Positions 1,873-50,572 of a stretch of 64,000 bases of DNA are shown here, in pieces; the stretch's first letter is position 1, and each line of letters begins with the position of its first letter. The translations under genes were made by a program, and so were the position numbers. This DNA is from Candidatus Falkowbacteria bacterium RIFOXYC2_FULL_36_12. Its GTDB lineage: Bacteria > Patescibacteriota > Patescibacteriia > UBA11705. The stretch spans positions 129,148-193,147 of the forward strand of contig MFGJ01000008.1 in NCBI GenBank assembly GCA_001778235.1, given 5' to 3'. Below the pieces are notes generated by a model, which worked only from the letters and a program-made list of their open reading frames with translations, made no database searches and was not told the DNA's origin.

Positions 1873-2370
1873 TTACTTCCTATATCTCAACCGATCCAGC
1901 TTCTCAATAATATTTTCTTCTTTTTGTAAAATCTGATGTTGTTGTTGCAGAATTTTATCTTCAATCTTTTGAGTTTCTCTGATTTTATCAAGGAAAACAT
2001 CTCCTTCCTTATCAAAATCTTGTTTTACGCTACGAAAATACGGACGCATAAAAAGCGAACTAATCAAGATTAATACTTGCACCACAAAAATTATAAATAA
2101 TATCACTACCAAACTAAATGTCACGAGAGAAATCATTCTTCCTACCAAAGTAATTGCTGACAAATCATCATTACCAAATTTAAAAATATTTTCCACAATA
2201 CGGAATGAATCATTTAGATCGCTGACTTCTGGGTTAATTTGATTTTCAACAATAAACAACAAAAAATTTGCTGATATTAATATAATAACAAAAAACAATC
2301 CCAAAAAACCCAATATCAACCATGATTTTCTTCTTTTTAATTTAGCCTCCATATTTTTTCCTATTGGCAC
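1873..2370 (-). CDS. hypothetical membrane protein (2 predicted TM helices, C-terminal coiled coil)
   Basis: Long hydrophobic stretches, then a charged heptad-like tail. It is wedged between tyrS and argS. Confidence 0.55.
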   Translation of the reverse strand: MPIGKNMEAKLKRRKSWLILGFLGLFFVIILISANFLLFIVENQINPEVSDLNDSFRIVENIFKFGNDDLSAITLVGRMISLVTFSLVVILFIIFVVQVLILISSLFMRPYFRSVKQDFDKEGDVFLDKIRETQKIEDKILQQQHQILQKEENIIEKLDRLRYRK

Positions 2371-2407
2371 TCTGAACCTACAACAAAGGTTTCAGGGGAT
2401 TTATAAA

Positions 2408-3601
2408 CTATTTTATTTTTACAAAATGCCTCTTACCCTTTTGGACAACATCACCGCTTTTAACTTCAAACTCAACCGAATTTATAATTTCATCATTTAT
2501 TTTAACTGCTTTTTGCTCTACCATTCTCTTTGCTTCAGATTTTGAAATTACAAGGCCTGTCTCAATCAAAACATCTACAATATTAAAATTTGAAACTGTT
2601 TTTTCCTCAATTTCATCTGGCCGTTCCTTCTTCTGAAACATTTGGACAAAATTTTCTTCAGCCTTATCAGCCCTATCTTCATCAAAATAAAACTCAACAA
2701 TTTCCTTGGCTAACTCAACTTTCAAATCTCTTGGATTTTCACCTTGTTTCAATCTTTCTTCAAATAATTTTAATTTAACCGATTCAACCATTGTACAAAG
2801 TTCAAACCCCGGAATAATCATGCCATCTGTCCAGCTCATTACCTTGCCAAACATATCATCAGGACTATCAGCCAAAGTAATCATGTTTCCTTCAGATTTT
2901 CCCATTTTTATTCCTGATGGATCTGTCAATAATTTATTAGTCAAAACAAATTTTTCCTTCATTCCAAGCGATTTCATCAAATCCCGACCAGCAAGCATAT
3001 TAAAAGTCTGATCATTACCACCGACTTCACCATCAACATCCATTGCAACTGAATCATAACCTTGCATCAGCGGATACAAAAATTCATGTAAACTAATCGG
3101 TTTACCCTCTTTCATTCTTTTCTGGTACATATCCCTCTCAAGAAACTGCTGGACCGTAAAATTTGAAGCCAAATCAATCACCTGCCGAAAATCAAGTTTA
3201 TCTAACCATTTATGATTAAACTTTATTTCAACTTTATTCTTACCAGTGAAATCAAGTATTTTTTCAGCTTGTTTTTTATAATTTTTAGCATTTATCAATA
3301 CTTGTTCTCGAGTCAAAGGCTTTCTAGTTGCAGATTTGTCAGTCGGGTCACCAATCATTGCAGTAAAACTACCAATTAAAATTATAACCTGATGCCCAAG
3401 CTGTTGAAACTCGCGAAGCTTCATAAAATTTATCGCGTGTCCCAAATGCAAATCAGTTCCGGTCGGGTCAATACCTAAATATAGAGTTAATCTTTGCCCA
3501 GACTTTAATCTTTTCTCTAAAAATTCTCTGCTCGGATAAATATTCTGCACGCCTCGAGTTAATAACTTTTCTATTTTCTGGGAATCTGTATCAATTTTCA
3601 T
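2408..3601 (-). CDS. tyrS: tyrosyl-tRNA synthetase
   Basis: HLGH (HIGH) and KMGKS (KMSKS) motifs with a C-terminal S4-like domain. The ATG at 3601 was verified. Confidence 0.9.
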   Translation of the reverse strand: MKIDTDSQKIEKLLTRGVQNIYPSREFLEKRLKSGQRLTLYLGIDPTGTDLHLGHAINFMKLREFQQLGHQVIILIGSFTAMIGDPTDKSATRKPLTREQVLINAKNYKKQAEKILDFTGKNKVEIKFNHKWLDKLDFRQVIDLASNFTVQQFLERDMYQKRMKEGKPISLHEFLYPLMQGYDSVAMDVDGEVGGNDQTFNMLAGRDLMKSLGMKEKFVLTNKLLTDPSGIKMGKSEGNMITLADSPDDMFGKVMSWTDGMIIPGFELCTMVESVKLKLFEERLKQGENPRDLKVELAKEIVEFYFDEDRADKAEENFVQMFQKKERPDEIEEKTVSNFNIVDVLIETGLVISKSEAKRMVEQKAVKINDEIINSVEFEVKSGDVVQKGKRHFVKIK

Positions 3602-3612
3602 ATAATTTATTT

Positions 3613-6600
3613 TTATTCTAATTCTTCTAATTGATTTTGTAATTTTTCTATCTTTTCTTTTGCTTCATTAAATTTCCTTTGTTCTTCAGCCACCACCAGT
3701 TCAGGAGCATTTTTCATAAATTCTTCATTTCCCAATTTTTTCTCCAAACCTAATACATATTTTTTACTGTTATCAATCTCACTCTTCAGTCGTTCAATTT
3801 CCTTATCAATATCAAGCAATTCAGCCAAAGGCAAATAAATTTCCACATCTGAAACAATCGCGGTCGCAGATTTCTCTGGTTTTTCAATTACCAGTTCAAT
3901 TTTTTCTAAACGGGCTAAGCTCATGATTATGCCAAATTGACTTTGCAATCTCTCTCCAGCTTTTATTTGAATCTTTATTTTTTTCGCCGGATCAATTTTG
4001 TATTCAGAACGCATATTTCTTATTTTCCCAATCACAACCTGCAGTTGTTCAAACTCTTTCACTCCCTCTTTATCAATCATTTTCTTATCAAATTGTGGAA
4101 ATTTACTTACCATCAACTCTTGTTCTGAACCTAAATTTTGCCAAATTGCTTCAGTCACAAAAGGCATGAACGGATGCCACATTTTGAGCAAATTTTTCAA
4201 TATATGAATCAAAACCACATCTTTGTCATTTTCAACCTTAGCAATTTCCAAATACCAATCAGCCAAATCATTCCAAGTAAATTCTTTTAATAAATCTCCC
4301 GCACCTGAAAAATTATACTCATCAAGCATTTTTGTTACATCCTGAATCAAAGTATTAAATTTTGACAATATCCATCTATCACTCAAACTAACATTTTTAT
4401 TCAATTCAAATTTTGAGTCTCTTTTTTCAGGATTCAATGTCATCAAAATATACCTAGAAATATTCCAAAGTTTATTAACAAAATTTCTATATCCTTCAAT
4501 TTTTTCATCATAAAGTCTAATATCATTACCAGCCGTATTACCAATAAGCAAACTCAATCTTACCGCATCAAATCCATACTTATCTCCAGCCTGAAGCGGA
4601 TCAATTGCTGTTTCAGGTTTTGATTTTGACATTTTATCTCCATTTTTATCTCGAACCAATCCGTGCAAATACACATTTTCAAATGGAACCTCTCCCTTTA
4701 CATAGGTTGTCATCAAAATCATTCTAGCCACCCAGAAAAATAAAATATCATAACCAGTCTCCATCACAGTTGTTGGATGAAATCTTTTCATGTCTTTACC
4801 CTCAAATTTTTTCCCATTCCAATCTTCGGGCAACAAAGTTGAAAAAGTCCAAAGACCTGAACTGAACCAAGTATCTAGAGTATCTGAATCCTGATAAATA
4901 TTTTCCAATCCATTCGGAGACTCTACATTGGTTAATTTTATTTTTATATTTTCACCTGTTTCAGGATAACCAAGTTTAAAAATTTCTTCATCAGTTAAAT
5001 TTTTGTGCATCCCTTGAGCCATTCTAAGCACATCTCCATGGCTAACAACCAACACCTTTTTCCCTGAATATTTTTTCAATATATCTGTTAAACAACTGAA
5101 AACTCGCTTTTTTTGGTGCAGAAAAGATTCAATTCCCTTTGGGCTATCATTTCTCCAAGCTTCAAAATCAGCTTCGCGAAAATGGACAAAATCTCCTACC
5201 GACTTGCCTTCAAACTCACCAACACCCACTTCCCTCAATCTTTCATCAAATATTACTTTTAATTTTAATTCTTTATTTAATATTCCAACTGTTTCTTTTG
5301 TCCGACTAAAATCAGAAGCATAAATAATATCAAACTTTTCATTTTTTAATTTTTCAGCCATTATTTTAATTTGCTTCTTACCTGTTCCAGTCAAACCATT
5401 TTCCAGATTATCAATATCTGAACTCAAAACTCCTTTTTCATTTGTCTTAGCTTCTCCATGTCTCTGCAAAACAATTTCAGTCGGCTTGGCATCAGAAATA
5501 ATCGGCTGTTTTAAATCCTTGTCATACCAAACAGGAATTTGGTGTCCAAACCAAATCTGACGGGAAATACACCAATTATGTAAATTTTCCATCCAATGAA
5601 AATAAACCTTTTCAAATCTTTCTGGAATTATATTAATTTCTTTGTCTTTTACTACCTTGATTGCCACTTGTTTCAAGCTTGCTCCATTACTGAAATATTT
5701 ATTACCTTTTTTTGTGATTTTTTTATTGACATCAATAAACCATTGATCAGAAATTAATGGCTCAATCACTGTTTTACATCTATAACAGACAGATATTTTA
5801 TTATCATAATCATCATCAATCTTCTCAATCAACCCCATAGCCTTCATATCCTTTACTATTGATTCTCTCGCTTCCAAACTTGTCATCCCAACATATTTCC
5901 CACAATTAGCCATCATCCGACCATCTTCATCAATAATTTGCTTGATAGGTAATTCATTTCGCTCGGCAATCTCATAATCAACCAAACTATGCGCTGGAGT
6001 CACTTTTACCGCTCCTGTTCCGAATTCTGGGTCTACAGCCTCATCTGCAACTACAGTTATCTCAAACTCACCCAAAACACCTGGGATCATATACTTTTTA
6101 CCAATCATCGATTTATACCTTTTATCCTTTGGATTTACCGCTACGGCTGTATCACCAAGTTTTGTTTCTGGTCTAGTTGTTGCCAAAACAAACGGACCAT
6201 ATTTAAGCCAATACAACTTACTTTTAGTTTCTTTATATTCTATTTCATCATCTGCCAGAGTCGTATGACACCGCGGACACCAATTTACAATCCTATTGCC
6301 CCTGATTACAAGACCATCATCATACATCATTTTGAAAACTTTTCGCACCGCCATACTACGAACATCATCTAGGGTATATGTTTCTCTACTCCAATCTACA
6401 CTTGAACCCATTTTTCTAGTCTGATTGGTAATTGTTTTCTTGCTCTGACTTACAAAATCCTCAACTTTATTCAAAAAAGCTTCTCTACCTAAATCATGTC
6501 TGGTTTTTCCTTCGTCATTGAATATTTTCTTCTCCACAACATTCTGTGTTGCGATCGCCGCATGATCAAAGCCTGGCAACCAAAGAGTATCAAAACCCTG

Positions 6601-8348: not shown

Positions 8349-8425
8349 GGGCCTGTAGCTCAGTTGGTTAGAGCACCACTCTTATAAAGTGGGGGTCATG
8401 GGTTCAAGTCCCATCAGGCCTACCA
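8349..8425 (+). tRNA. tRNA-Ile, anticodon UAU
   Basis: Cloverleaf folded by hand: 7-bp acceptor stem, anticodon stem ccact/agtgg, loop cttataa, TTCAAGT T-loop, 3' CCA encoded. Close to E. coli tRNA-Ile except for the anticodon. Confidence 0.8.
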
Positions 8426-8560: not shown

Positions 8561-8590
8561 TAAAATAAAAGCACCACCATATAGGTGGTG
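8561..8590 (-). terminator. Rho-independent terminator-like hairpin (caccacc-atata-ggtggtg) with a T-run on the minus strand
   Basis: 7-bp perfect stem at 8572..8590. On the minus strand it is followed by ttttattttaaaa. Confidence 0.4.
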
Positions 8591-8891
8591 GGCAGGGGTA
8601 GTCTTTAGGTACGATCATGGTAAAAAATATTACCAATCAATTGAACCATGTCAATCAGATTTTGCCAATTCGCCCCACTAAAAAAGATTACTCTTTACAT
8701 AGATAATTGGTCGATAAATCAACATTATCATTGTCCAACCATAAAATGGATAAGCTTAGCATATTAATTATATGAATTTTAACTTGAATTGTCAAATTAA
8801 ATCCTTTATTTGTAGATTTGTGGTAAATTTGCAATTTGTGGACAATACTTTTTTCTTTAAAAACAAAAAAGAGTCTGCTTATTAACAAACT

Positions 8892-41403: not shown

Positions 41404-43440
41404 ATGAACTTCAAATTACACTCAAACTACAAACCAGCCGGAGACCAACCTCAAGCCATTGATGGTCTTGTTTCAGGTATTGAAAAAAACTTTAGCAAGC
41501 AAACCCTACTTGGAGTTACTGGCTCTGGTAAAACCTTTACCATTGCTAATGTTATTGAAAAAATCCAACTTCCAACTCTTGTGATTGCTCACAACAAAAC
41601 TCTGGCAGCCCAACTGTGCAATGAATTTCGTGAATTTTTCCCAGACAATGCAGTTGAATATTTTGTCAGCTACTATGATTATTACCAACCTGAAGCCTAT
41701 CTCCCCAATTCAGATACCTACATTGAAAAAGAAGCTCAAATCAACCAAGAAATTGATCGACTTCGTCATGCCTGCACCCAAGCATTAATTACCCGCAAAG
41801 ATGTAATCATTGTTGCCTCTGTTTCAGCTATTTATGGTCTTGGTTCACCTGATGAATATGAAAAAGTTGTTATTGAATTCAAACAAGGTCAAAAATTAAA
41901 TCGCCGACAGCTGATGGAACAACTGGTAAACATGCAATACACCCGAACTGGGGTTGAACTCCGTCGCGGTTTATTTCGCATGACCGGTCAAGTATTTGAA
42001 GTCATGCCAATCAATGAAGAAACTATTTATCGTTTTGAAATATCTGACAAAATTGACAAAATCGAAAAAATTGAACCCATCACCAGAAAATTTATTGAAG
42101 AAATAAAAAATGCTTGGCTTTTTCCAGCTAAACATTATGTTTTGAATGAAGACCTCAAACAAGACGGGATTACAAAAATTAAAACCGAACTTAAACAACA
42201 ATTAGCTAAATTTAAAAAACAAGACAAACTTCTTGAACACGAAAGATTAAAACAAAAAACTCGCTATGATATTGAAATGATTGAAAATATTGGTTACTGC
42301 AATGGTATAGAAAATTATTCCCGACATTTTGATGGCCGATCTGCTGGGCAACCACCATATACGCTTCTTGATTATTTTAAATATGGAACAAGAAAATTTC
42401 TGACCGTAATCGACGAATCTCATGTTACAATCCCGCAAATTCGCGCTATGTATAATGGAGATAAAGCCAGAAAAGACTCCTTAATAAATTTTGGGTTTAG
42501 AATGCCTAGCGCTCGGGACAATCGACCACTAACCTATGATGAATTTAATGCTAAAACCGATTTTACAATTTATACTACAGCTACTCCAAATGATTATGAA
42601 TTAAATAATTCAAAACAAATTGTTGAACAAATAGTTCGACCGACCGGACTTGTTGATCCTGCAGTCATTATTCGTCCAATCACTGAATCAAAAAATCACC
42701 CCTCACAAATTCAGGATTTAATTTCAGAAATTGACAAACAAATTAAGAAAAAAGAACGAACATTAGTTACCACCTTAACCAAGAAAATGGCCGAGGATCT
42801 TTCCGACTATCTAAAAGCCAAAAATATCAAAGTCTCTTATCTTCATAGTGACATTGATACCTTGGAAAGAATTGAAATTTTAACTGAACTGCGTAAAGGT
42901 AGCATTGATGTTCTAATTGGTGTAAATCTTCTCCGTGAAGGACTAGATATCCCTGAAGTTTCCCTGGTCGCCATTCTGGATGCTGACAAAGAAGGTTTTC
43001 TCCGAAGTGAAACCAGCTTGATACAAACAATTGGACGAGCAGCCCGAAATGCTAATGGCCGAGTAATTCTCTATGCTGATCAAATAACTGGTTCAATCAA
43101 AAATGCTCTTAGTGAAACTGATCGTCGCCGAAAAAAACAACTAGCCTACAATAAAAAAAATAACATTACTCCAAAAACCATTGAAAAAAATATTCGTAAT
43201 ATTCTTGAAGAATTTGGTTTGACCGTAAATAAAAATAAAAAAAATAAAAATGGTAAAAAACAAATTGATAAAATTCTTCAGCTTGAACTAAAAAATGATA
43301 CAAGACCGATTGAAAAAATTATTGCAGAAAAAGAAACAGCTATGCGTCAAGCAGCCAAAGATTTGGAATTTGAGTTAGCATCAATTTTACGAGATGAGAT
43401 TAAACAACTAAATAAAAAAAGATCAAAAAGAAAAAAATAA
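41404..43440 (+). CDS. uvrB: excinuclease ABC subunit B
   Basis: GVTGSGKT Walker A, DESH box, helicase motifs, C-terminal UVR domain. Confidence 0.95.
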   Translation: MNFKLHSNYKPAGDQPQAIDGLVSGIEKNFSKQTLLGVTGSGKTFTIANVIEKIQLPTLVIAHNKTLAAQLCNEFREFFPDNAVEYFVSYYDYYQPEAYLPNSDTYIEKEAQINQEIDRLRHACTQALITRKDVIIVASVSAIYGLGSPDEYEKVVIEFKQGQKLNRRQLMEQLVNMQYTRTGVELRRGLFRMTGQVFEVMPINEETIYRFEISDKIDKIEKIEPITRKFIEEIKNAWLFPAKHYVLNEDLKQDGITKIKTELKQQLAKFKKQDKLLEHERLKQKTRYDIEMIENIGYCNGIENYSRHFDGRSAGQPPYTLLDYFKYGTRKFLTVIDESHVTIPQIRAMYNGDKARKDSLINFGFRMPSARDNRPLTYDEFNAKTDFTIYTTATPNDYELNNSKQIVEQIVRPTGLVDPAVIIRPITESKNHPSQIQDLISEIDKQIKKKERTLVTTLTKKMAEDLSDYLKAKNIKVSYLHSDIDTLERIEILTELRKGSIDVLIGVNLLREGLDIPEVSLVAILDADKEGFLRSETSLIQTIGRAARNANGRVILYADQITGSIKNALSETDRRRKKQLAYNKKNNITPKTIEKNIRNILEEFGLTVNKNKKNKNGKKQIDKILQLELKNDTRPIEKIIAEKETAMRQAAKDLEFELASILRDEIKQLNKKRSKRKK

Positions 43441-43450
43441 CACAGAACAA

Positions 43451-43475
43451 AAATCGACTTACCAGTCGATTTTTA
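43451..43475 (+). terminator. Rho-independent terminator after uvrB (atcgact-tacc-agtcgat + TTTTT). A second hairpin at 43487..43502 serves the convergent minus gene.
   Basis: 7-9 bp stem followed by a T-run. Confidence 0.6.
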
Positions 43476-43530
43476 AATAAAAAAATGACACTTTTATGTC
43501 AAATTTTGAATAATATTTCTTTATTATCTA

Positions 43531-44049
43531 TCAGTTTTCTTCAATCTGTCTCAAAGATTCTCGACGATCTTCTTCAAACTGTTTTAGTGAAAATTCACTT
43601 TGCTTATACGCACCATTGAAAACCGGTCGAATTTTCAGAGTTGGCACAGACAAACACACCAGAAAATGCCAATAAAAAGTTAAAATCTTCTGCCTTAACT
43701 CACTGACACAACTGTGTTTCCAGTTATCTTCGCCAACATCATCACCAAAAACATACCAAATCAAATCCGATTCATCCAAAGAATTTTCACCAACATATTG
43801 ATCGAGCAACTGTTCACATTGAAACCTCCAACTTTCTACTCTATCAAAGAATTCATTCACCCATGTGATAAAATCAACTGAAACTAGCTTTACTCCAGAC
43901 AGAAACGGCACCTCATCTCGAATTGCCTGCAACAGAGGACCGACCTTCCAAACTCTATAAAGAATAACTTCAAATTCCAATACTACTAACTGATCTTTTG
44001 GCAATCTTTTTAAAGACTTCACACTTTGAAGTATTGTCCAGTATTGCAT
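43531..44049 (-). CDS. hypothetical protein (172 aa from the ATG at 44049)
   Basis: AAGGAGA SD 5 nt upstream of the ATG at 44049. No motif recognised. Confidence 0.45.
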   Translation of the reverse strand: MQYWTILQSVKSLKRLPKDQLVVLEFEVILYRVWKVGPLLQAIRDEVPFLSGVKLVSVDFITWVNEFFDRVESWRFQCEQLLDQYVGENSLDESDLIWYVFGDDVGEDNWKHSCVSELRQKILTFYWHFLVCLSVPTLKIRPVFNGAYKQSEFSLKQFEEDRRESLRQIEEN

Positions 44050-44213
44050 CGTTTCTCCTTTGCGGGTGCCAAAGAACAATTAGCTAAACCAATAAAAGTA
44101 TACACTATTACCAAAGATTTGTCAAGCTTAAGCTAAATATACACAATTATTGACAATTCAGACAAAAATTCATATAGTTAATATTAGACAACCCAAATAT
44201 GCTTGAATACCCT

Positions 44214-44230
44214 CTAGAAACTTTTTCTAG
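44214..44230 (+). promoter_or_regulatory. Perfect palindrome CTAGAAA-CTT-TTTCTAG, about 85 nt upstream of uvrA (candidate operator)
   Basis: 7-bp inverted repeat with a 3-nt spacer, read directly. Confidence 0.35.
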
Positions 44231-44316
44231 CGGGGATATTGTAATCTACAAACACACAAAAACTATAATCTAACAACTTACAACTAAAACCTAATTACTA
44301 TCAACTCAAACCAAAT

Positions 44317-46899
44317 ATGCAAGACAAAATAATCATCACTGGCGCCAAAGAGCACAATCTAAAAAATATAAACCTAGAAATCCCCAGAAATAAAATGATA
44401 GTTTTCACAGGTTTGTCTGGTTCTGGCAAATCCAGTCTAGCTTTTGATACTATTTTTGCCGAAGGCCAAAGACGCTATATTGAAAGTCTGTCAGCTTATG
44501 CTAGACAATTTCTTGGTGGACTGCAAAAACCCAATGTTGATGAAATTACCGGACTTTCACCCGCCATTTCCATTGACCAAAAAGCTCACAGCGCCAATCC
44601 CCGATCAACCGTTGCTACCATTACTGAAATTTATGACTATCTCCGAATTTTATTTGCCAAAATCGGTACACCCTATTGCCCAATTTGCCAAACAAAATTG
44701 GATAAAACCACTACTCAAGAAATGACCGAAACAATTTTAACGAAAATAACCAAATTTAAAAATAATCAAGACAATGAATTAAAAATTTTCGCTCCAATTG
44801 TTCGCGGACGCAAAGGAGAATATCATCAATTACTCTATGATATTTATAATTCTGGATTTCTCGAAGCCCGAATTGATAACAAAATCTACAAACTAAAAAA
44901 TCGCATTGATCTTTCCCGCTACCAAAAACACACCATTGAAATTGTTATTGATAAAGCCTGGGTTGATGAATTTTTACTTCAAGAATTCAAAAAAGGCACA
45001 GAGCAACGACTGGCTGAAGCCATAGAAAAAGCCGTTGATCTGTCCAATGGACTTTGCACTGTTATTTATCCTGATTTATCTGAAGAAACTTTTTCTACTG
45101 AATTTACTTGCCCCAAAGACGGTTATAGCTTTCCTGAAATCGAACCTCGTCTTTTTAGTTTCAACAGTCCCTATGGCTACTGTGAATTTTGCACTGGACT
45201 TGGAACTAAAGAATTGTTCAGTACTGAACCATGCCCTGTCTGTGAGGGCAAAAGATTAAACAACAATGCTCTTCATGTCAAAATTGACAATAAAAATATT
45301 TGGCAGATTACCAATCTATCAGTCAAAGATGCCAATCAATTTTTCAACCAACTAAAACAAAAACTAACCAACCAACAGAACGAAATTGCTGAATTAGTTA
45401 TCAATGAAATAAACAATCGCCTGCAATTTATGTTCGATGTTGGTCTACATTATTTAACTCTAAATAGAAAATCAGGTACTCTCTCCGGTGGCGAAGCCCA
45501 GAGAATTAGATTAGCATCACAAGTTGGACAACGATTAGTCGGAGCACTTTATGTTCTTGATGAACCAACAATTGGTCTGCATCAAAAAGACAACGAACAG
45601 CTAGTCAATACCCTGCGCAATCTTTGTGATATTGGCAATACTATTATTGTTGTTGAACATGATGAAGACACAATTCTTTCTAGTGATTGGGTGGTTGATA
45701 TTGGCCCTGGTGCTGGTAAACATGGCGGTGAAATAGTTTTTTCAGGACCTTTAGACAATTTATTGAATAGTAAAAAAATTCTTGAACAAGTATCCTTAAA
45801 CTGCCAGACTGCGGGTCAAGCAAAAAATTCTTTAACCGGTAAATATCTCCGATCTGAAGAAACCATTCCCACACCAAAACAATACCGAAAAGTCGACAAA
45901 AAAACTCCGACAATAAAAATTATCGGAGCATCACAGCACAATCTTAAAAACATTGATGTTGAAATTCCTCTACGCCGGCTTGTTTGTCTTACTGGTGTTT
46001 CTGGCTCTGGAAAATCAACACTAATGAATGATATTCTCTATCGCGCAGTTCAAAATAAATTATTTCGCACCAGAAAAAAAGTCGGCGAGCATAAATCAAT
46101 CAGCGGAACAGAAACTTTAGACAAAATAATTCGCATTGATCAAGGTCCGATTGGCCGTTCACCTCGTTCAAACCCAGCAACCTATACCTGTTCATGGACA
46201 TTTATTCGTGAATTATATTCAGCCACACCTGAAGCCAAAATCAGAGGCTACAAACCAGGTAGATTTAGTTTCAATCGTCCAGGTGGCCGTTGTGAAGCCT
46301 GTGAAGGTCGTGGTGTAAAAGAAATTGAAATGCATTTTCTACCTAGTGTAGAAGTTATTTGTGAAATTTGCCACGGCAAAAGATTTAACAAAGAAACCCT
46401 ACAAGTTCACTACAAAGGCAAGGATATTTCTGAAGTTTTAGACATGACAATTGAAGACGCTGAAATTTTTTTCCGCGATATCCCAATTATTTATTCAAAA
46501 TTAAAAATATTAAATGAAGTTGGCTTGGATTATTTAACACTTGGCCAATCAGCTAAAACTCTTTCCGGAGGAGAAGCTCAAAGAACAAAACTAAGCAAAG
46601 AACTTGCCCGAAAAAGTACAACCCAAACACTTTATCTCTTGGATGAACCAACAACTGGCCTGCATTATGCTGATGTAAAAAAACTACTTGAAGTACTTCA
46701 GAGACTGACCAGCCAAGGCAACACCGTCATGATTATCGAACACAATCTTGATGTTATTAAAAATGCTGACTGGGTAATTGATCTCGGACCAGGCGGAGGC
46801 GAAGAAGGCGGTCATCTTGTTGCCATGGGAACACCAGAAGACATCGCCAGAAAGTCAGCTAGTTTTACCGGAAAATATCTCAAACCATATCTAAAATAA
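44317..46899 (+). CDS. uvrA: excinuclease ABC subunit A (compact, 860 aa)
   Basis: Two ABC modules ([10 protein letters not shown] / [18 protein letters not shown] x2) and zinc-finger cysteines. Confidence 0.95.
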
Positions 46900-46905
46900 T
46901 CTTCC

Positions 46906-46955
46906 AAGCAGGTGGTATTTGAGAATATCACCTGCTTTAATTATACTTTTTTAAT
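46906..46955 (+). terminator. Terminator-like hairpin after uvrA (aagcaggtg...cacctgctt, 9 bp) followed by a T-rich tract
   Basis: The stem is perfect, the loop 14 nt, and the T-run is displaced by 9 nt. Confidence 0.4.
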
Positions 46956-46995
46956 GTAATTTTTCATCTTATTTCACCTAATTTTAGCCCAATCA

Positions 46996-47024
46996 TTGAC
47001 ATTTTTATCAAAATATGCTATAAT
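46996..47024 (+). promoter_or_regulatory. Consensus sigma70 promoter TTGACA-17-TATAAT driving the GC-rich ORF
   Basis: Exact hexamers at 46996..47001 and 47019..47024. GAGGAG SD 6 nt before the ATG at 47085. Confidence 0.55.
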
Positions 47025-47084
47025 TCATTGTTAGGCCTGTACCTTCAATGGTCCAATCTGGACCCGAAACGAGAGGAGACTCCC

Positions 47085-47780
47085 ATGGGAATCACCCTGC
47101 TCCAGCGCATCATCAACCCCAGAGCCAAGGGGACAGTGGATGATCCGGAAGAAATTTGGCCAGAGAAGTTCAACAACAACCCCAGAGCACTGATCGCCAT
47201 CTGGAACTTCATTCCGAAAGTCAACCATGACTGCCCGCTGTGGCAGGCGGTCATCGCCATCTTCAAGGAACTCGAAAAGTTCGACATTGAAGACAACTAC
47301 TGCCCCACCATCGAGGTCTACAACGGTCAGGACCAGAAACCCCAAGTCCTGATCATGGTGGACCGCCCTATCACCACCGGCTACATCGCCAAAACCCAGG
47401 TCTACGGTCCGGCGGATGAACTGATCGCGATCTACAACTCTCTCATCATCTTCACCATCGACATACACAGGAGTCGCTGCTGGCGTAGCCGGTCATGGAT
47501 CACTGCCTGGCTCTGCGCCCTCGGCTTCACAGAGGACGAGGCACACATGCTGGCTTCGGACAGAGATTTCCACCTGAACACCACCGCCTGCTACTTCCTC
47601 ACCCGCCTCGGCCTCCAACTCGGCCACGATGTCGAGGAATGCCTCGAACTTGCGAAGCAAATCAAACGCGAAGCCGATGTGGACGCGATCATCGAACTAC
47701 TGCTCGAAGACCGCTCACTCGGCCTCGACGACGCCGTCGCCCTGGCCTGTCCGATCCCCCGCCCGATCACCCACACCTGA
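47085..47780 (+). CDS. GC-rich hypothetical protein of evident foreign origin (231 aa)
   Basis: Strong G/C third-position bias in this frame only (atc acc ctg ctc cag cgc ...). The flanking DNA is AT-rich. No recognisable motif. Confidence 0.6.
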   Translation: MGITLLQRIINPRAKGTVDDPEEIWPEKFNNNPRALIAIWNFIPKVNHDCPLWQAVIAIFKELEKFDIEDNYCPTIEVYNGQDQKPQVLIMVDRPITTGYIAKTQVYGPADELIAIYNSLIIFTIDIHRSRCWRSRSWITAWLCALGFTEDEAHMLASDRDFHLNTTACYFLTRLGLQLGHDVEECLELAKQIKREADVDAIIELLLEDRSLGLDDAVALACPIPRPITHT

Positions 47781-47931
47781 AATCCACCAACAACAAGTAA
47801 ACAACAACAACAAACCGACTCATAAAAGTGAGCGGTTTTCAGTTTAAATTTTATTCAGTTATAATATAATTATCAATTAAATTTTATCCTTATGCTAAAA
47901 ATTGACTGGACAAATAAAAATTTATTCAACA

Positions 47932-48330
47932 CCACAAACACGATAAGCCTCGGGGCTTGTCTGCCGTAATCTTGATGAAGGCAGGTCTGGGGGGATTCTT
48001 AACATCAAAAAGCACGCCATAGACTTGATCAAGGGTACCACGCAGAGCGTAATCAATCACTTAATCTCAAAAAAACTTGCTTTAACAAAACTTATCACCT
48101 ACTTTATATATTAAATTCCACAAACACGGCAAGCATCGGGTCTTGCCTGCCGTAATCTTGATGAAGGCAGGTCTGGGTGAACAAGCGCGTCATCAAAACC
48201 ACGAACTTGATCAAAACAATTCGCATTTGTTCACCCAGTGGTTTTTGCATACTTTTTGCCATCAAAAAGTATGACGCGAAGCGTAATCAATCACTTATTC
48301 TCAAAATAACTTACTTTAGCAAAACAACAA
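47932..48330 (+). repeat. Two tandem copies (about 186-nt period) of a structured element with conserved 5' and 3' modules and a variable middle
   Basis: Copies start at 47932 and 48118 (ccacaaacacg...). Both carry ctgccgtaatcttgatgaaggcaggtctggg and gcgtaatcaatcactta-tctcaaaa-aactt-cttta-caaaac. Confidence 0.6.
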
Positions 48331-48465
48331 CTTACATTTAGATTACACTAGTGATCACTACATTCATTTGTTTCGCCTTTAAACCTATATATCAGCTGTC
48401 GCTGTTGGTTTATGTTTAAAACAAAAAAATCTTCACTTAGTTTAGCAAAGATAAATTAGTTTTGA

Positions 48466-48672
48466 TTATTCACCATTCTGCTTCGGAGCACGCCGATTGC
48501 AGGGCATCAGACGACGAGTCAAATTACTCGGCCTCTCACACTGATTTCTGAATGTCAAATCAGGGTTAAAATTTCTTGGTGTTCCATCATTCTGATCCAA
48601 AATCCTCTTATGTTCCTGAAAAACTTCATCCGAATTGAAGGTCGTAGGAAAAGGATTGAACAAGTTCGGCAT
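48466..48672 (-). CDS. possible small protein (68 aa)
   Basis: ATG at 48672 preceded by GGAGGG at 5 nt. Intermediate GC. No homology recognised. Confidence 0.25.
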   Translation of the reverse strand: MPNLFNPFPTTFNSDEVFQEHKRILDQNDGTPRNFNPDLTFRNQCERPSNLTRRLMPCNRRAPKQNGE

Positions 48673-48705
48673 GATTTCCCTCCGTCTGGGTTGGTCTCGA
48701 ACAAC

Positions 48706-48734
48706 TTGACAATAACAAGATTATATCATATTAA
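48706..48734 (+). promoter_or_regulatory. Promoter TTGACA-17-TATTAA placed 7 nt before the uvrC ATG (leaderless-type arrangement)
   Basis: -35 at 48706..48711, -10 at 48729..48734, ATG at 48742. Confidence 0.4.
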
Positions 48735-48741
48735 TCATACT

Positions 48742-49998
48742 ATGTCAACAGTAAACTCAAAAATAAAACAATTACTGAAAAAACTCCCTTCTACACCCGG
48801 AATATACTTTTTTTATAATAGCCAAAAACAAATAATCTATATTGGCAAAGCCACCAACCTTCATACTCGAGTAAAAAGCTATTTTCAAGCTAAAAAAACT
48901 GATCGTCCAATTGAAACCATGATTTCTAAAATTAATAATATAAAATTCCTCCAAACCGACTCTGTGCTTGAAGCAATTATATTAGAAGCCCAACAGATAA
49001 AAAAACTGCAACCGATTTATAATGTCTTAGGCAAAGACAATAAAAGCTGGATCTATATTGTAATCACCAATCACCAATATCCACGAGTTGAAACAATCAG
49101 AGAACATGAGCTAAATCAATTATCTGAAATAACCAAGAAAAAAGTCTACAACAAAATCTTTGGTCCATTTCCAAATTTACGAACAAAAGACACCATAAGA
49201 ATTCTGCAAAAACTTTTCTCTATTTCCTTTTGTCATCCTGATCAGAAAAAAGCCTGTTTTTATCGTCAACTAAATCAATGCTTGGGAGTTTGCACCAATG
49301 AAATTTCCGACAAGGACTATAAAAGTAAAGTTATTAATCCTTTAATTCAATTTTTATCTGGAAAAAAATCTTCAGTCATTCAAAAATTGAAAAAACAAAT
49401 GTTTCAAACTTCAAAAGCTGAAAATTTCGAAGAAGCTGGTCGAATACGCAACCAAATCAATAACTTAAAACATATCCAGGATGTGACGCTAATAGATGAA
49501 AAATTTTTCCAATCATATCGTGCAGACTCCAATCAACATTTATTTAAAATTGAAGGTTATGATATTTCCAATCTAGGATCAACTGGAAAAGTTGGCAGTC
49601 TTGTTGTCTTCGATCAATCAGGTCCGATCAAATCTGAATATAAAAAATTCAAAATCAAAACTGTCAGCGGTCAAAGCGATGTTGATTGTCTAGCTGAAAT
49701 ATTTGAACGCCGATTAAAACATCAAAATTGGACTTTGCCAGATTATTTTTTGGTTGATGGTGGCAAACCACAATTAAACAAAATTAAAAAAATCCTTATT
49801 TCTAAGAACATTGATATTCCTATTATTGGAATTGCCAAGGGTCAAGAACGAAAAAAAAATGAATTCCATCTCACCACTAGAAATCAATCCATTCTCGATT
49901 TCATAAAGCAAAACAGCAAACTTTTGATCCAAGTCAGAGATGAAGCCCACAGATTTGCTATCAGCTACCAACGCAAATTAAGAAAAATAAAGAAATAA
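48742..49998 (+). CDS. uvrC: excinuclease ABC subunit C (short form; GIY-YIG and RNaseH-like endonuclease domains)
   Basis: GIYFFYNSQKQIIYIGKATNLHTRVKSYF GIY-YIG motif. The ATG at 48742 is preferred over the upstream track start. Confidence 0.8.
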   Translation: MSTVNSKIKQLLKKLPSTPGIYFFYNSQKQIIYIGKATNLHTRVKSYFQAKKTDRPIETMISKINNIKFLQTDSVLEAIILEAQQIKKLQPIYNVLGKDNKSWIYIVITNHQYPRVETIREHELNQLSEITKKKVYNKIFGPFPNLRTKDTIRILQKLFSISFCHPDQKKACFYRQLNQCLGVCTNEISDKDYKSKVINPLIQFLSGKKSSVIQKLKKQMFQTSKAENFEEAGRIRNQINNLKHIQDVTLIDEKFFQSYRADSNQHLFKIEGYDISNLGSTGKVGSLVVFDQSGPIKSEYKKFKIKTVSGQSDVDCLAEIFERRLKHQNWTLPDYFLVDGGKPQLNKIKKILISKNIDIPIIGIAKGQERKKNEFHLTTRNQSILDFIKQNSKLLIQVRDEAHRFAISYQRKLRKIKK

Positions 49999-50012
49999 CC
50001 ACATATGGTTAT
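49995..50012. terminator. Bidirectional hairpin (ataacca-cata-tggttat) between convergent uvrC and the transposase gene
   Basis: 7-bp stem overlapping both stop codons, followed by ttcttttg. Confidence 0.4.
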
Positions 50013-50572
50013 TTCTTTTGATTTATTGGATTATGTTTTATATAAATTCTAATTTGGTCTAATGATTCATCGTTGCGAATTATGTGATCATAATATTGTT
50101 TCTGCCAAAATTGGACACCAATGGAATTATTCAATTTATTAATTTTTCGTGCGGAAAATGTTTTGAACCCGCGGATTATCTCACACAATTTGTATTTTTT
50201 ATCATAAACATTATTTGTAGGTGACGGTTTGAAACCGTCACCTACCGTTTCATCATCAATTAATTGCGGGTTCAAACCGTCACCTATCGATTCATCATCA
50301 ATCAATTGAATAATGCCATGCACATGGTCGGGCATAATAATAAATTCGTCCAAAACACAATTTTTATAATGATTTGGTAGATCATACCAACAATCTCTAA
50401 CAATTTTTCCTAATTCATTTAATAACATTTCATTATTTTCCACCGTACCTAGACAACAAAACCTGTTCTTTACACAAATTGTTATAAAATAAAAACCAGG
50501 ACTCGAATAATCCCAATTTTTTAATCTAAAAATCCCCTTATATTTCCCCCTATATAATTCCTTCTCATTCAT
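50009..50572 (-). CDS. IS200/IS605-family Y1 HUH transposase homologue (RAYT-like)
   Basis: HUH motif HVHGII and catalytic Tyr region QKQYYDHIIRN. Size and layout match TnpA(IS200)/RAYT. Confidence 0.7.
   Translation of the reverse strand: MNEKELYRGKYKGIFRLKNWDYSSPGFYFITICVKNRFCCLGTVENNEMLLNELGKIVRDCWYDLPNHYKNCVLDEFIIMPDHVHGIIQLIDDESIGDGLNPQLIDDETVGDGFKPSPTNNVYDKKYKLCEIIRGFKTFSARKINKLNNSIGVQFWQKQYYDHIIRNDESLDQIRIYIKHNPINQKK
50217..50245. repeat. REP-like palindrome GTAGGTGACGG-TTTGAAA-CCGTCACCTAC inside the transposase ORF, plus a 42-nt tandem duplication (50228..50311)
   Basis: 11-bp perfect stem starting with GTAG. The adjacent 42-nt units encode IDDESIGDGLNPQL / IDDETVGDGFKPSP in frame. 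Confidence 0.6.

Follow-up and report, generated by a model that had tools for sequence, protein, structure and literature searches.

In the 64,000-nt stretch of contig MFGJ01000008.1 analyzed here (hereafter the window), which derives from Candidatus Falkowbacteria bacterium RIFOXYC2_FULL_36_12, a GC-rich open reading frame (ORF) of 231 codons, ORF231 (47085-47780, + strand), lies between uvrA and uvrC. We consider it likely that ORF231 is a horizontally acquired gene, carried in a lineage-specific insertion of 1.84 kb that splits the ancestrally contiguous uvrA-uvrC pair of a Falkowbacteria (Patescibacteria) population of the Rifle aquifer. What was observed directly is the composition and coding signature of the gene, the presence of an insertion when compared with relatives, the integrity of the assembly and the orphan status of the product; the DNA would have been taken up from a GC-richer organism or mobile element not yet sampled. 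The kind of event is already known, as horizontal transfer in groundwater Patescibacteria; what is new is an orphan gene known from a single aquifer population.

The mean GC content of the window is 34.4%, and that of the block spanning 47033-47800 is 57%. When measured over successive 40-nt segments, GC rises from 0.17-0.30 (46940-47010) to 0.50-0.62 from about 47030, and over 200-nt segments it stays at 0.52-0.61 up to about 47780 and then falls to 0.12-0.38. The first-pass annotation of this DNA had described an abrupt switch to codons with G/C third-position bias at about 47040-47800 and a return to AT-rich sequence right after the stop; sliding-window GC and codon-usage analyses bore it out on both points and confirmed the block as a compositional outlier. 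ORF231 starts at ATG 47085 and stops at TGA 47778-47780, and its GC content at the first, second and third codon positions (GC1/2/3) is 0.57/0.38/0.78, with C at 0.56 (C3) and G at 0.22 (G3) of third positions. Apart from ORF231, the window has 60 non-nested ORFs of 100 aa or longer, and their GC3 values all lie at 0.13-0.40; uvrA, uvrB and uvrC have 0.24-0.28. The terminal stop is the only one in the ORF231 frame, the remaining five frames carrying 3-20 stops each. Such periodicity (GC3 > GC1 > GC2) is classically found in coding sequences with an evolutionary past in a GC-richer background, and we take ORF231 to be a real protein-coding gene.

The codon table pointed in the same direction: GCG, CCG, CTG, CTC, AAG and GAG are frequent in ORF231 and almost unused by the native genes, TTA, TTT, AAT and TAT are absent from it, and TA dinucleotides are strongly depleted (0.33). 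The relative synonymous codon usage (RSCU) of ORF231 correlates at -0.08 with that of uvrA and at -0.48 with that of EF-Tu. The lowest GC3 values of the window, 0.13-0.25, are those of highly expressed native genes (EF-Tu, EF-G and ribosomal proteins), so that the GC3 of ORF231 is not explicable by native translational selection, and the foreign origin that had been proposed for the composition was thereby corroborated. None of the six longest ORFs in the other frames or on the opposite strand of the GC-rich block gave a Pfam match, which argues against the real gene lying in another frame. For two contigs of this locus, L092 (JGI 3300009031) and L093 (NCBI GCA_001778075.1), the recorded gene call is an antisense ORF of 145 aa (47031-47468, - strand) and not ORF231; because of this call, NCBI-sourced entries of the protein collection do not include the ORF231 product. 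An alternative genetic code, code 25 (UGA = Gly), was rejected, since under code 11 no interruption is seen in UvrA, UvrB and other long genes. Third-position composition is also very strongly asymmetric between the strands over the whole window: + strand genes have about 0.16-0.27 C and about 0.05-0.13 G at third positions, - strand genes about 0.02-0.12 C and about 0.11-0.29 G, the ribosomal protein cluster lying on the - strand.

The insertion is flanked on the left by uvrA (44317-46899, + strand; 860 aa, Pfam UvrA_inter/ABC) and on the right by uvrC (48742-49998, + strand; 418 aa, Pfam GIY-YIG, UvrC_M and UvrC_RNaseH), for which 48742 is the most likely start, leaving a spacer of 1842 nt (46900-48741). 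In relatives, uvrA homologues with 64-67% identity are found directly upstream of uvrC. Counted over the 53 related Patescibacteria loci with both genes, and taking a spacer of less than 100 nt or an overlap as abutting, uvrA and uvrC abut in 33. This supported the earlier remark that the ORF interrupts a uvrA-uvrC neighborhood and, moreover, indicates that the whole 1842-nt spacer, not ORF231 alone, is lineage-specific. No ORF231-like sequence was detected by tblastn and nhmmer in 86 other related loci. The UvrC protein is 100% identical to NCBI A2223_02820 of Candidatus Falkowbacteria bacterium RIFOXYA2_FULL_35_8, a metagenome-assembled genome (MAG) of the Rifle aquifer, and the next-best UvrC among 5.8 billion proteins is 60-62% identical, suggesting a lineage without a sampled close relative. 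At that distance the acquisition is undatable, and the epithet "recent" given to it in the first-pass annotation, which follows from the lack of amelioration alone, could not be upheld.

Other, unrelated insertions were found at the same junction in the two or three nearest lineages. The locus L086 (62% UvrC identity) has a 2.6-kb spacer with a block of GC 0.51-0.55 that encodes a metallophosphatase and an ADP-ribosylglycohydrolase (2300-4140 of that locus, GC3 about 0.58), L087 carries a 137-aa orphan, and in L007 (59% UvrC identity) a block of GC 0.45-0.65 containing a ThiF/E1-like gene lies directly upstream of uvrC. The spacers of L086, L087 and L007 show no similarity to the spacer described here, and none resembles another. 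Judged from this junction alone, foreign DNA seems to have entered the uvrA-uvrC boundary of the clade repeatedly. The GC-rich block of L007 further contains a 416-aa ORF (2114-3364, + strand) with GC3 0.83 and no Pfam match, whose RSCU correlates with that of ORF231 (r = 0.73); a shared donor is not evidenced by this value, as any two high-GC3 genes would correlate.

The abrupt compositional edges made the integrity of the assembly a central point. Contigs that match the window at 100% identity for 4-20 kb, and span both GC junctions, were found among ENA MEGAHIT (k141), SPAdes (NODE), JGI and Logan assemblies and in two NCBI MAGs; identity across both junctions is 100% in L001-L003, L088, L090 and L092-L094. 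Two short JGI contigs cover one junction each, independently, L084 the left and L085 the right one. Both junctions are reproduced base for base by several assemblers from different samples, and the misassembly that had been named as a possible refutation is practically excluded. The 231-codon ORF is intact in at least ten contigs. L084 is identical to the window over 2.9 kb apart from a deletion of 23 nt (47408-47430, + strand, in the blastn alignment), which frameshifts ORF231 and leaves a truncated product (P0005). Runs of N interrupt the scaffolds L091, starting at 47421, and L095, at 47418-47520, in both cases inside ORF231 and not at the junctions. Since three independent assemblies falter at the same nucleotides, co-existing alleles are suggested. 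An engineered cassette, brought to mind by the consensus promoter, the strong ribosome binding site (RBS) and a CCATGG at the start codon, was rejected, the locus being present in Rifle aquifer MAGs of the 2016 era and in many independent metagenome assemblies.

Upstream of ORF231, promoter P1 (46996-47024, + strand) consists of TTGACA, a 17-nt spacing and TATAAT, with a TG at -15/-14 (extended -10) and a 12/12 match to the consensus. The exact promoter that the first-pass annotation had placed before the ORF is therefore real, and such sites are rare: three are found in the 64 kb versus none in 100 shuffles, and two of the three bracket the uvrA-uvrC spacer. The 5' untranslated region of ORF231 (5'-UTR; 47033-47084, + strand) is GC-rich, at 0.5-0.62 from 47030, and holds a GAGGAG at 47073-47078, 6 nt 5' of the ATG. 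The Shine-Dalgarno (SD) site reported earlier is thus present at the proper place; it does not belong, as had been thought, to an AT-rich, native-like part of the sequence, but lies inside the GC-rich block. A SD-like motif precedes only 5 of the 46 gene starts of the window, ORF231 and EF-Tu among them, and translation initiation in this genome is largely SD-independent. Because of its position inside the block and the rarity of such sites in the genome, the SD of ORF231 was probably imported with the gene and would then not be native. P1 is AT-rich but lies in DNA that the relatives do not have, and it either arrived with the insertion or evolved later. The view that the gene had been placed under native signals is at odds with these results, given that the relatives have no intergenic space here, that the whole spacer is lineage-specific, with the uvrA terminator, the two consensus promoters and an RNA-like module in it, and that the SD is atypical for the genome.

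Two hairpins delimit the unit. An intrinsic terminator of uvrA (46906-46950, + strand), formed by the inverted repeat I1 as a 14-bp hairpin followed by a T-run, precedes P1 (ViennaRNA fold of 46895-46960, -19.1 kcal/mol). A probable terminator of ORF231 (47812-47848, + strand) consists of a hairpin (AACCGaCTCA...TGAGCGGTT) followed by UUUUCAGUUU, the fold of 47795-47850 having -12.7 kcal/mol; its 3' arm can alternatively pair with 47706-47719 (I4). Read together, these signals outline a monocistronic unit in which P1, a sigma70-type promoter with a consensus extended -10, would start transcription at about 47031, giving a transcript that would be GC-rich from its first bases and would bear its own imported SD; translation would run from ATG 47085 to TGA 47778-47780, and transcription would stop at the hairpin and U-tract of 47812-47848. 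In this reading, ORF231 would be strongly expressed from P1, a very strong promoter.

The product of ORF231 is an acidic, soluble protein of 26 kDa (pI 4.9) with no hydrophobic or transmembrane segment and no signal peptide. A word-indexed search of 5.8 billion protein clusters returned only ORF231 itself, and an exhaustive phmmer search of 1.84 billion representative proteins returned itself and P0006, a MBG-type repeat protein that we rejected as a homologue because it scored over three repeats, a repeat artifact. Pfam, NCBIfam, PHROGs and PADLOC gave nothing credible for ORF231 or for two other ORFs, ORF68 and ORF182; in PADLOC-DB 2.0 no family reached E ≤ 1 for any of the three, and the only family hits, phrog_36541 (E = 0.019) and a PGI/PMI model (E = 0.04), are both far below any cut-off. 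Phage and plasmid collections (tblastn, blastn) and viral contigs yielded no homologue, the plasmid hits being 56-nt chance matches in Streptomyces plasmids, and a scan of metagenome contigs recovered the same locus only. ORF231 is, in consequence of these searches, a strict ORFan. Homologues of similar GC in related low-GC genomes, which would have spoken against an acquisition, were not found, and neither was the high-GC host or partner that the first-pass annotation had suggested as donor, a homologue being present in none of the collections searched.

The C-terminal half of the protein is predicted to be helical, and three motifs resembling LG-x-(S/T/D)-x-E/D-x-A-x-x-LA occur in residues 144-231, spaced by about 33 aa. 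These were not significant in a shuffle test for internal repeats: the real score equaled the shuffle mean, and 217 of 500 shuffles matched or exceeded it. Against the Protein Data Bank (PDB), phmmer matched only designed dTor proteins, through summed non-significant stretches: dTor_12x31L reaches E = 4.8e-6 in total, while the individual PDB stretches have i-Evalues above 100.

Several observations weigh against ORF231 as an acquired, functional gene and have to be set beside this evidence. The absence of a donor homologue from about 15 billion proteins is odd for an unameliorated and supposedly recent transfer. The block is flanked neither by an integrase or transposase gene nor by an att site or a duplicated target site, and the spacer holds no mobility gene. 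The amino-acid composition is shifted only mildly toward that of GC-rich genes (Ile 11%, with the GC2 of 0.38 given above), and the strong excess of C3 over G3 has the direction seen in the recipient's own + strand genes; it could reflect a longer residence on the + strand or an unusual donor. The deletion allele and the gaps at the same nucleotides indicate that ORF231 may be dispensable or not under strong purifying selection. AlphaFold2 on the single sequence reached an overall predicted local distance difference test (pLDDT) score of 42, with 51-66 for the helical C-terminal half, and Foldseek of this model against the PDB gave nothing at E < 2 (probability ≤ 0.21). Because of the acidic charge, the lack of a recognizable catalytic family and the variable junction, we would tentatively, and with considerable doubt, take the product for a binding or accessory factor without enzymatic activity, of the immunity, anti-defense or partner-interaction type; the poor structure prediction and the missing fold match leave this guess without direct support.

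The most serious competitor of a functional acquisition accepts the transfer itself and holds that the ORF is a functionless, decaying passenger in this host, the promoter match being incidental or serving something else. We regard this as possible though clearly the less probable outcome, and the chance that ORF231 is neutral cargo on its way to loss as similar or slightly higher. The frameshifting deletion of L084 in an otherwise identical contig, the two other assemblies gapped from the same nucleotides and the failure to find a homologue anywhere searched, hence no sign of conservation, all fit such a passenger, and in a clonal population an intact ORF is expected from recency alone. The ORF is nevertheless intact in at least ten contigs, and a very rare 12/12 extended -10 promoter (none being expected in the 64 kb) is correctly placed with a SD and a terminator, making up a complete unit.

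The remaining explanations deny either the transfer or the gene. That the assembler inserted a piece of a GC-rich organism into a Falkowbacteria contig is suggested by the abrupt GC change at both edges and by the N-gaps inside the ORF of some scaffolds, and is made extremely improbable by junctions that MEGAHIT, SPAdes, JGI and NCBI MAG scaffolds from different samples reproduce base for base, by two short contigs that each span one junction independently and by the location of the gaps away from the junctions. A native gene that acquired GC-rich codons by selection in the recipient, either for high-expression translation or for messenger stability or structure, might account for the very strong promoter and SD, for a C3 > G3 bias in the direction tolerated in native + strand genes, for the depletion of TA and for an RNA fold z-score of -3.85; we find it very unlikely, seeing that GC3 is lowest of all in EF-Tu, EF-G and the ribosomal proteins, that GCG, CCG, CTG, AAG and GAG are almost never used natively and that no relative has an orthologue. 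About equally unlikely is a GC-rich stretch that is primarily a structured non-coding RNA with an incidental ORF. GC-rich islands of AT-rich genomes are often RNA genes, the order of promoter, GC-rich transcript and terminator is that of a small RNA, the same z-score (20 shuffles) would fit a structured RNA, and the two other exact promoters of the window appear to drive non-coding units. This explanation is opposed by the strong three-base periodicity (GC3 0.78 versus GC2 0.38), by 231 open codons where about seven stops are expected from base composition, by the correct spacing of the SD, by the lack of any Rfam match at E ≤ 1 and by a G/C skew of about -0.2, which is unfavorable for extensive self-pairing. 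An acquired ORF231 in a lineage-specific insertion remains the reading that we prefer.

The rest of the spacer is occupied by features of the opposite strand. Promoter P2 (48720-48748, - strand), again an exact TTGACA-17-TATAAT with TG, faces P1 and lies upstream of ORF68 and of two RNA-like elements, A (48106-48340, - strand) and B (47920-48100, - strand). These are tandem paralogues of about 235 and 180 nt, respectively, 79% identical (alignment A1), A having an extra hairpin of 52 nt; both end in hairpins followed by GTGTTTGTGG, and B contains the repeat families D1 and D2 and a terminator-like site at 47958-47945. An invariant 29-nt core, CAGACCTGCCTTCATCAAGATTACGGCAG, is identical in A and B and occurs nowhere else in the window. 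In the A/B consensus fold the conserved 5' and 3' segments pair as a closing helix around a variable middle, with one compensatory pair, and its G-U pairs fit the - strand only. The elements match no Rfam family, and neither 83 related loci nor viral contigs contained a further copy; with Rfam 15, the region 43000-50000 gave no relevant match at E ≤ 1, and the whole window gave only tRNAs at the gathering threshold. ORF68 (NCBI A2223_02815; 48466-48672, - strand) has 68 codons, a SD (GGAGGG) and only itself as a match among 5.8 billion proteins. Its coding status is doubtful because GC1/2/3 is flat (0.43/0.41/0.43), and it may be part of a non-coding transcript.

The -35 of P2 overlaps the uvrC start codon (ATGTCAA). 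On the + strand, a candidate uvrC promoter (48706-48734), TTGACA-17-TATTAA, was read directly from the sequence, as it fell outside the scan owing to an A at position 6 of the -10; it overlaps P2 face to face over 48706-48748. Transcription from it would possibly start at about the ATG and give a leaderless messenger, uvrC being without a SD. The third exact TTGACA-17-TATAAT site of the window lies in 8566-8795 (- strand), ahead of a unit of about 190 nt that adjoins tRNA genes and is closed by a strong hairpin terminator (CCACCACC...GGTGGTG plus a T-run); the unit has no Rfam match and a fold z-score of only -1.35. At 8349-8425 (+ strand) ARAGORN identified a tRNA-Ile with anticodon UAU; bacteria seldom have this tRNA, AUA being decoded in most of them through a lysidine-modified CAU tRNA.

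It is conceivable that the spacer is one functional module without a known counterpart, in which ORF231 and the convergent two-unit RNA (with ORF68), each under its own exact consensus promoter, would form a two-part conflict or partner-interaction system at a recurrent insertion site upstream of uvrC in this clade, or else that ORF231 was captured from a host or partner organism; we rate this as improbable. When paired by duplexfold with the first 100 nt of the ORF231 transcript, A/B plus the P2 leader reached energies no better than those of shuffled elements.

Other features were recorded around the uvr genes. The uvrB-uvrA spacer, of 876 nt, contains an orphan ORF (43531-44079, - strand) of 172-182 aa and native-like composition, without a match in Pfam, PHROGs, PADLOC or NCBIfam and without a tblastn match in the related loci; possibly it interrupts the uvrBAC cluster a second time. 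Directly downstream of uvrC, a 187-aa protein with an IS200-like Y1 transposase domain (50009-50572, - strand; Pfam Y1_Tnp, E = 8.6e-9) is encoded by a gene that overlaps the next one by one base and for which no flanking repeats were noticed. This gene lies beyond uvrC and is not adjacent to the spacer, which is flanked only by the weak AT-rich repeats I5 and D10.

The locus offers a clean and well-controlled case of an ultra-small bacterium of the candidate phyla radiation (CPR) acquiring a gene across lineages, and such organisms are thought to import DNA of their partners. The probably imported SD in a largely SD-less genome points to foreign origin by a second route that does not depend on GC content. 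The donor, if ever found, could point to a physical partner of this uncultured lineage, and, were ORF231 captured from a host or partner, the codon signature of the gene could be of use in recognizing that organism. Otherwise it is one more orphan family, possibly already being lost, and of limited general significance.

When set against known systems, the spacer recalls type III toxin-antitoxin loci (ToxIN-like) in that tandem structured-RNA-like units lie beside a protein gene that is strongly expressed in this reading, all within one small island. Elements A and B, however, measure about 180-235 nt versus repeats of about 36 nt, they are on the opposite strand and convergent, not upstream and co-transcribed, no ToxN/AbiE-type match was obtained, and the duplex energies with the ORF231 transcript were, as stated above, at shuffled level. 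The motifs spaced by about 33 aa, the weak summed dTor matches and low-probability Foldseek hits to DHR, TALE and BurrH proteins are reminiscent of alpha-helical repeat proteins (dTor/DHR, TALE/BurrH), although no single stretch is significant and the repeats are no better than shuffled, so that this is a resemblance and not a membership. Like an integron cassette, a type of element that often encodes ORFans, the block is gene-sized and foreign, extends from just 5' of its own RBS to near the stop and has a promoter upstream; no attC-like site (R''/L''-L'/R', GTTRRRY core) was seen by eye in 47780-47920, where no dedicated attC model was run, and the ORF lists covering 42-53 kb contain no IntI-like or other integrase ORF.

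ORFan accessory genes of variable or defense islands share with ORF231 an orphan product at a recurrently variable locus, and at or near the same junction relatives carry the E1/ThiF-like gene of L007, the ADP-ribosylglycohydrolase and metallophosphatase of L086 and, in L037, a HhH-GPD protein matching a PADLOC nicking-endonuclease model. The link is one of location only, as ORF231, ORF68 and ORF182 match nothing in PADLOC, PHROGs or Pfam and no known defense gene is adjacent. Horizontal transfer and genomic islands have been described in groundwater Patescibacteria and reach up to 13% of genome length (PMC12455944). Compared with the islets reported there, ORF231 is a single block of 0.77 kb with no mobility gene, no detectable donor or homologue and an exact consensus promoter; it agrees with them in its foreign GC and codon usage, in its absence from the syntenic site of relatives, in a variable junction that holds other cargo in some of these relatives, and in a recipient that is likewise a streamlined groundwater CPR bacterium.

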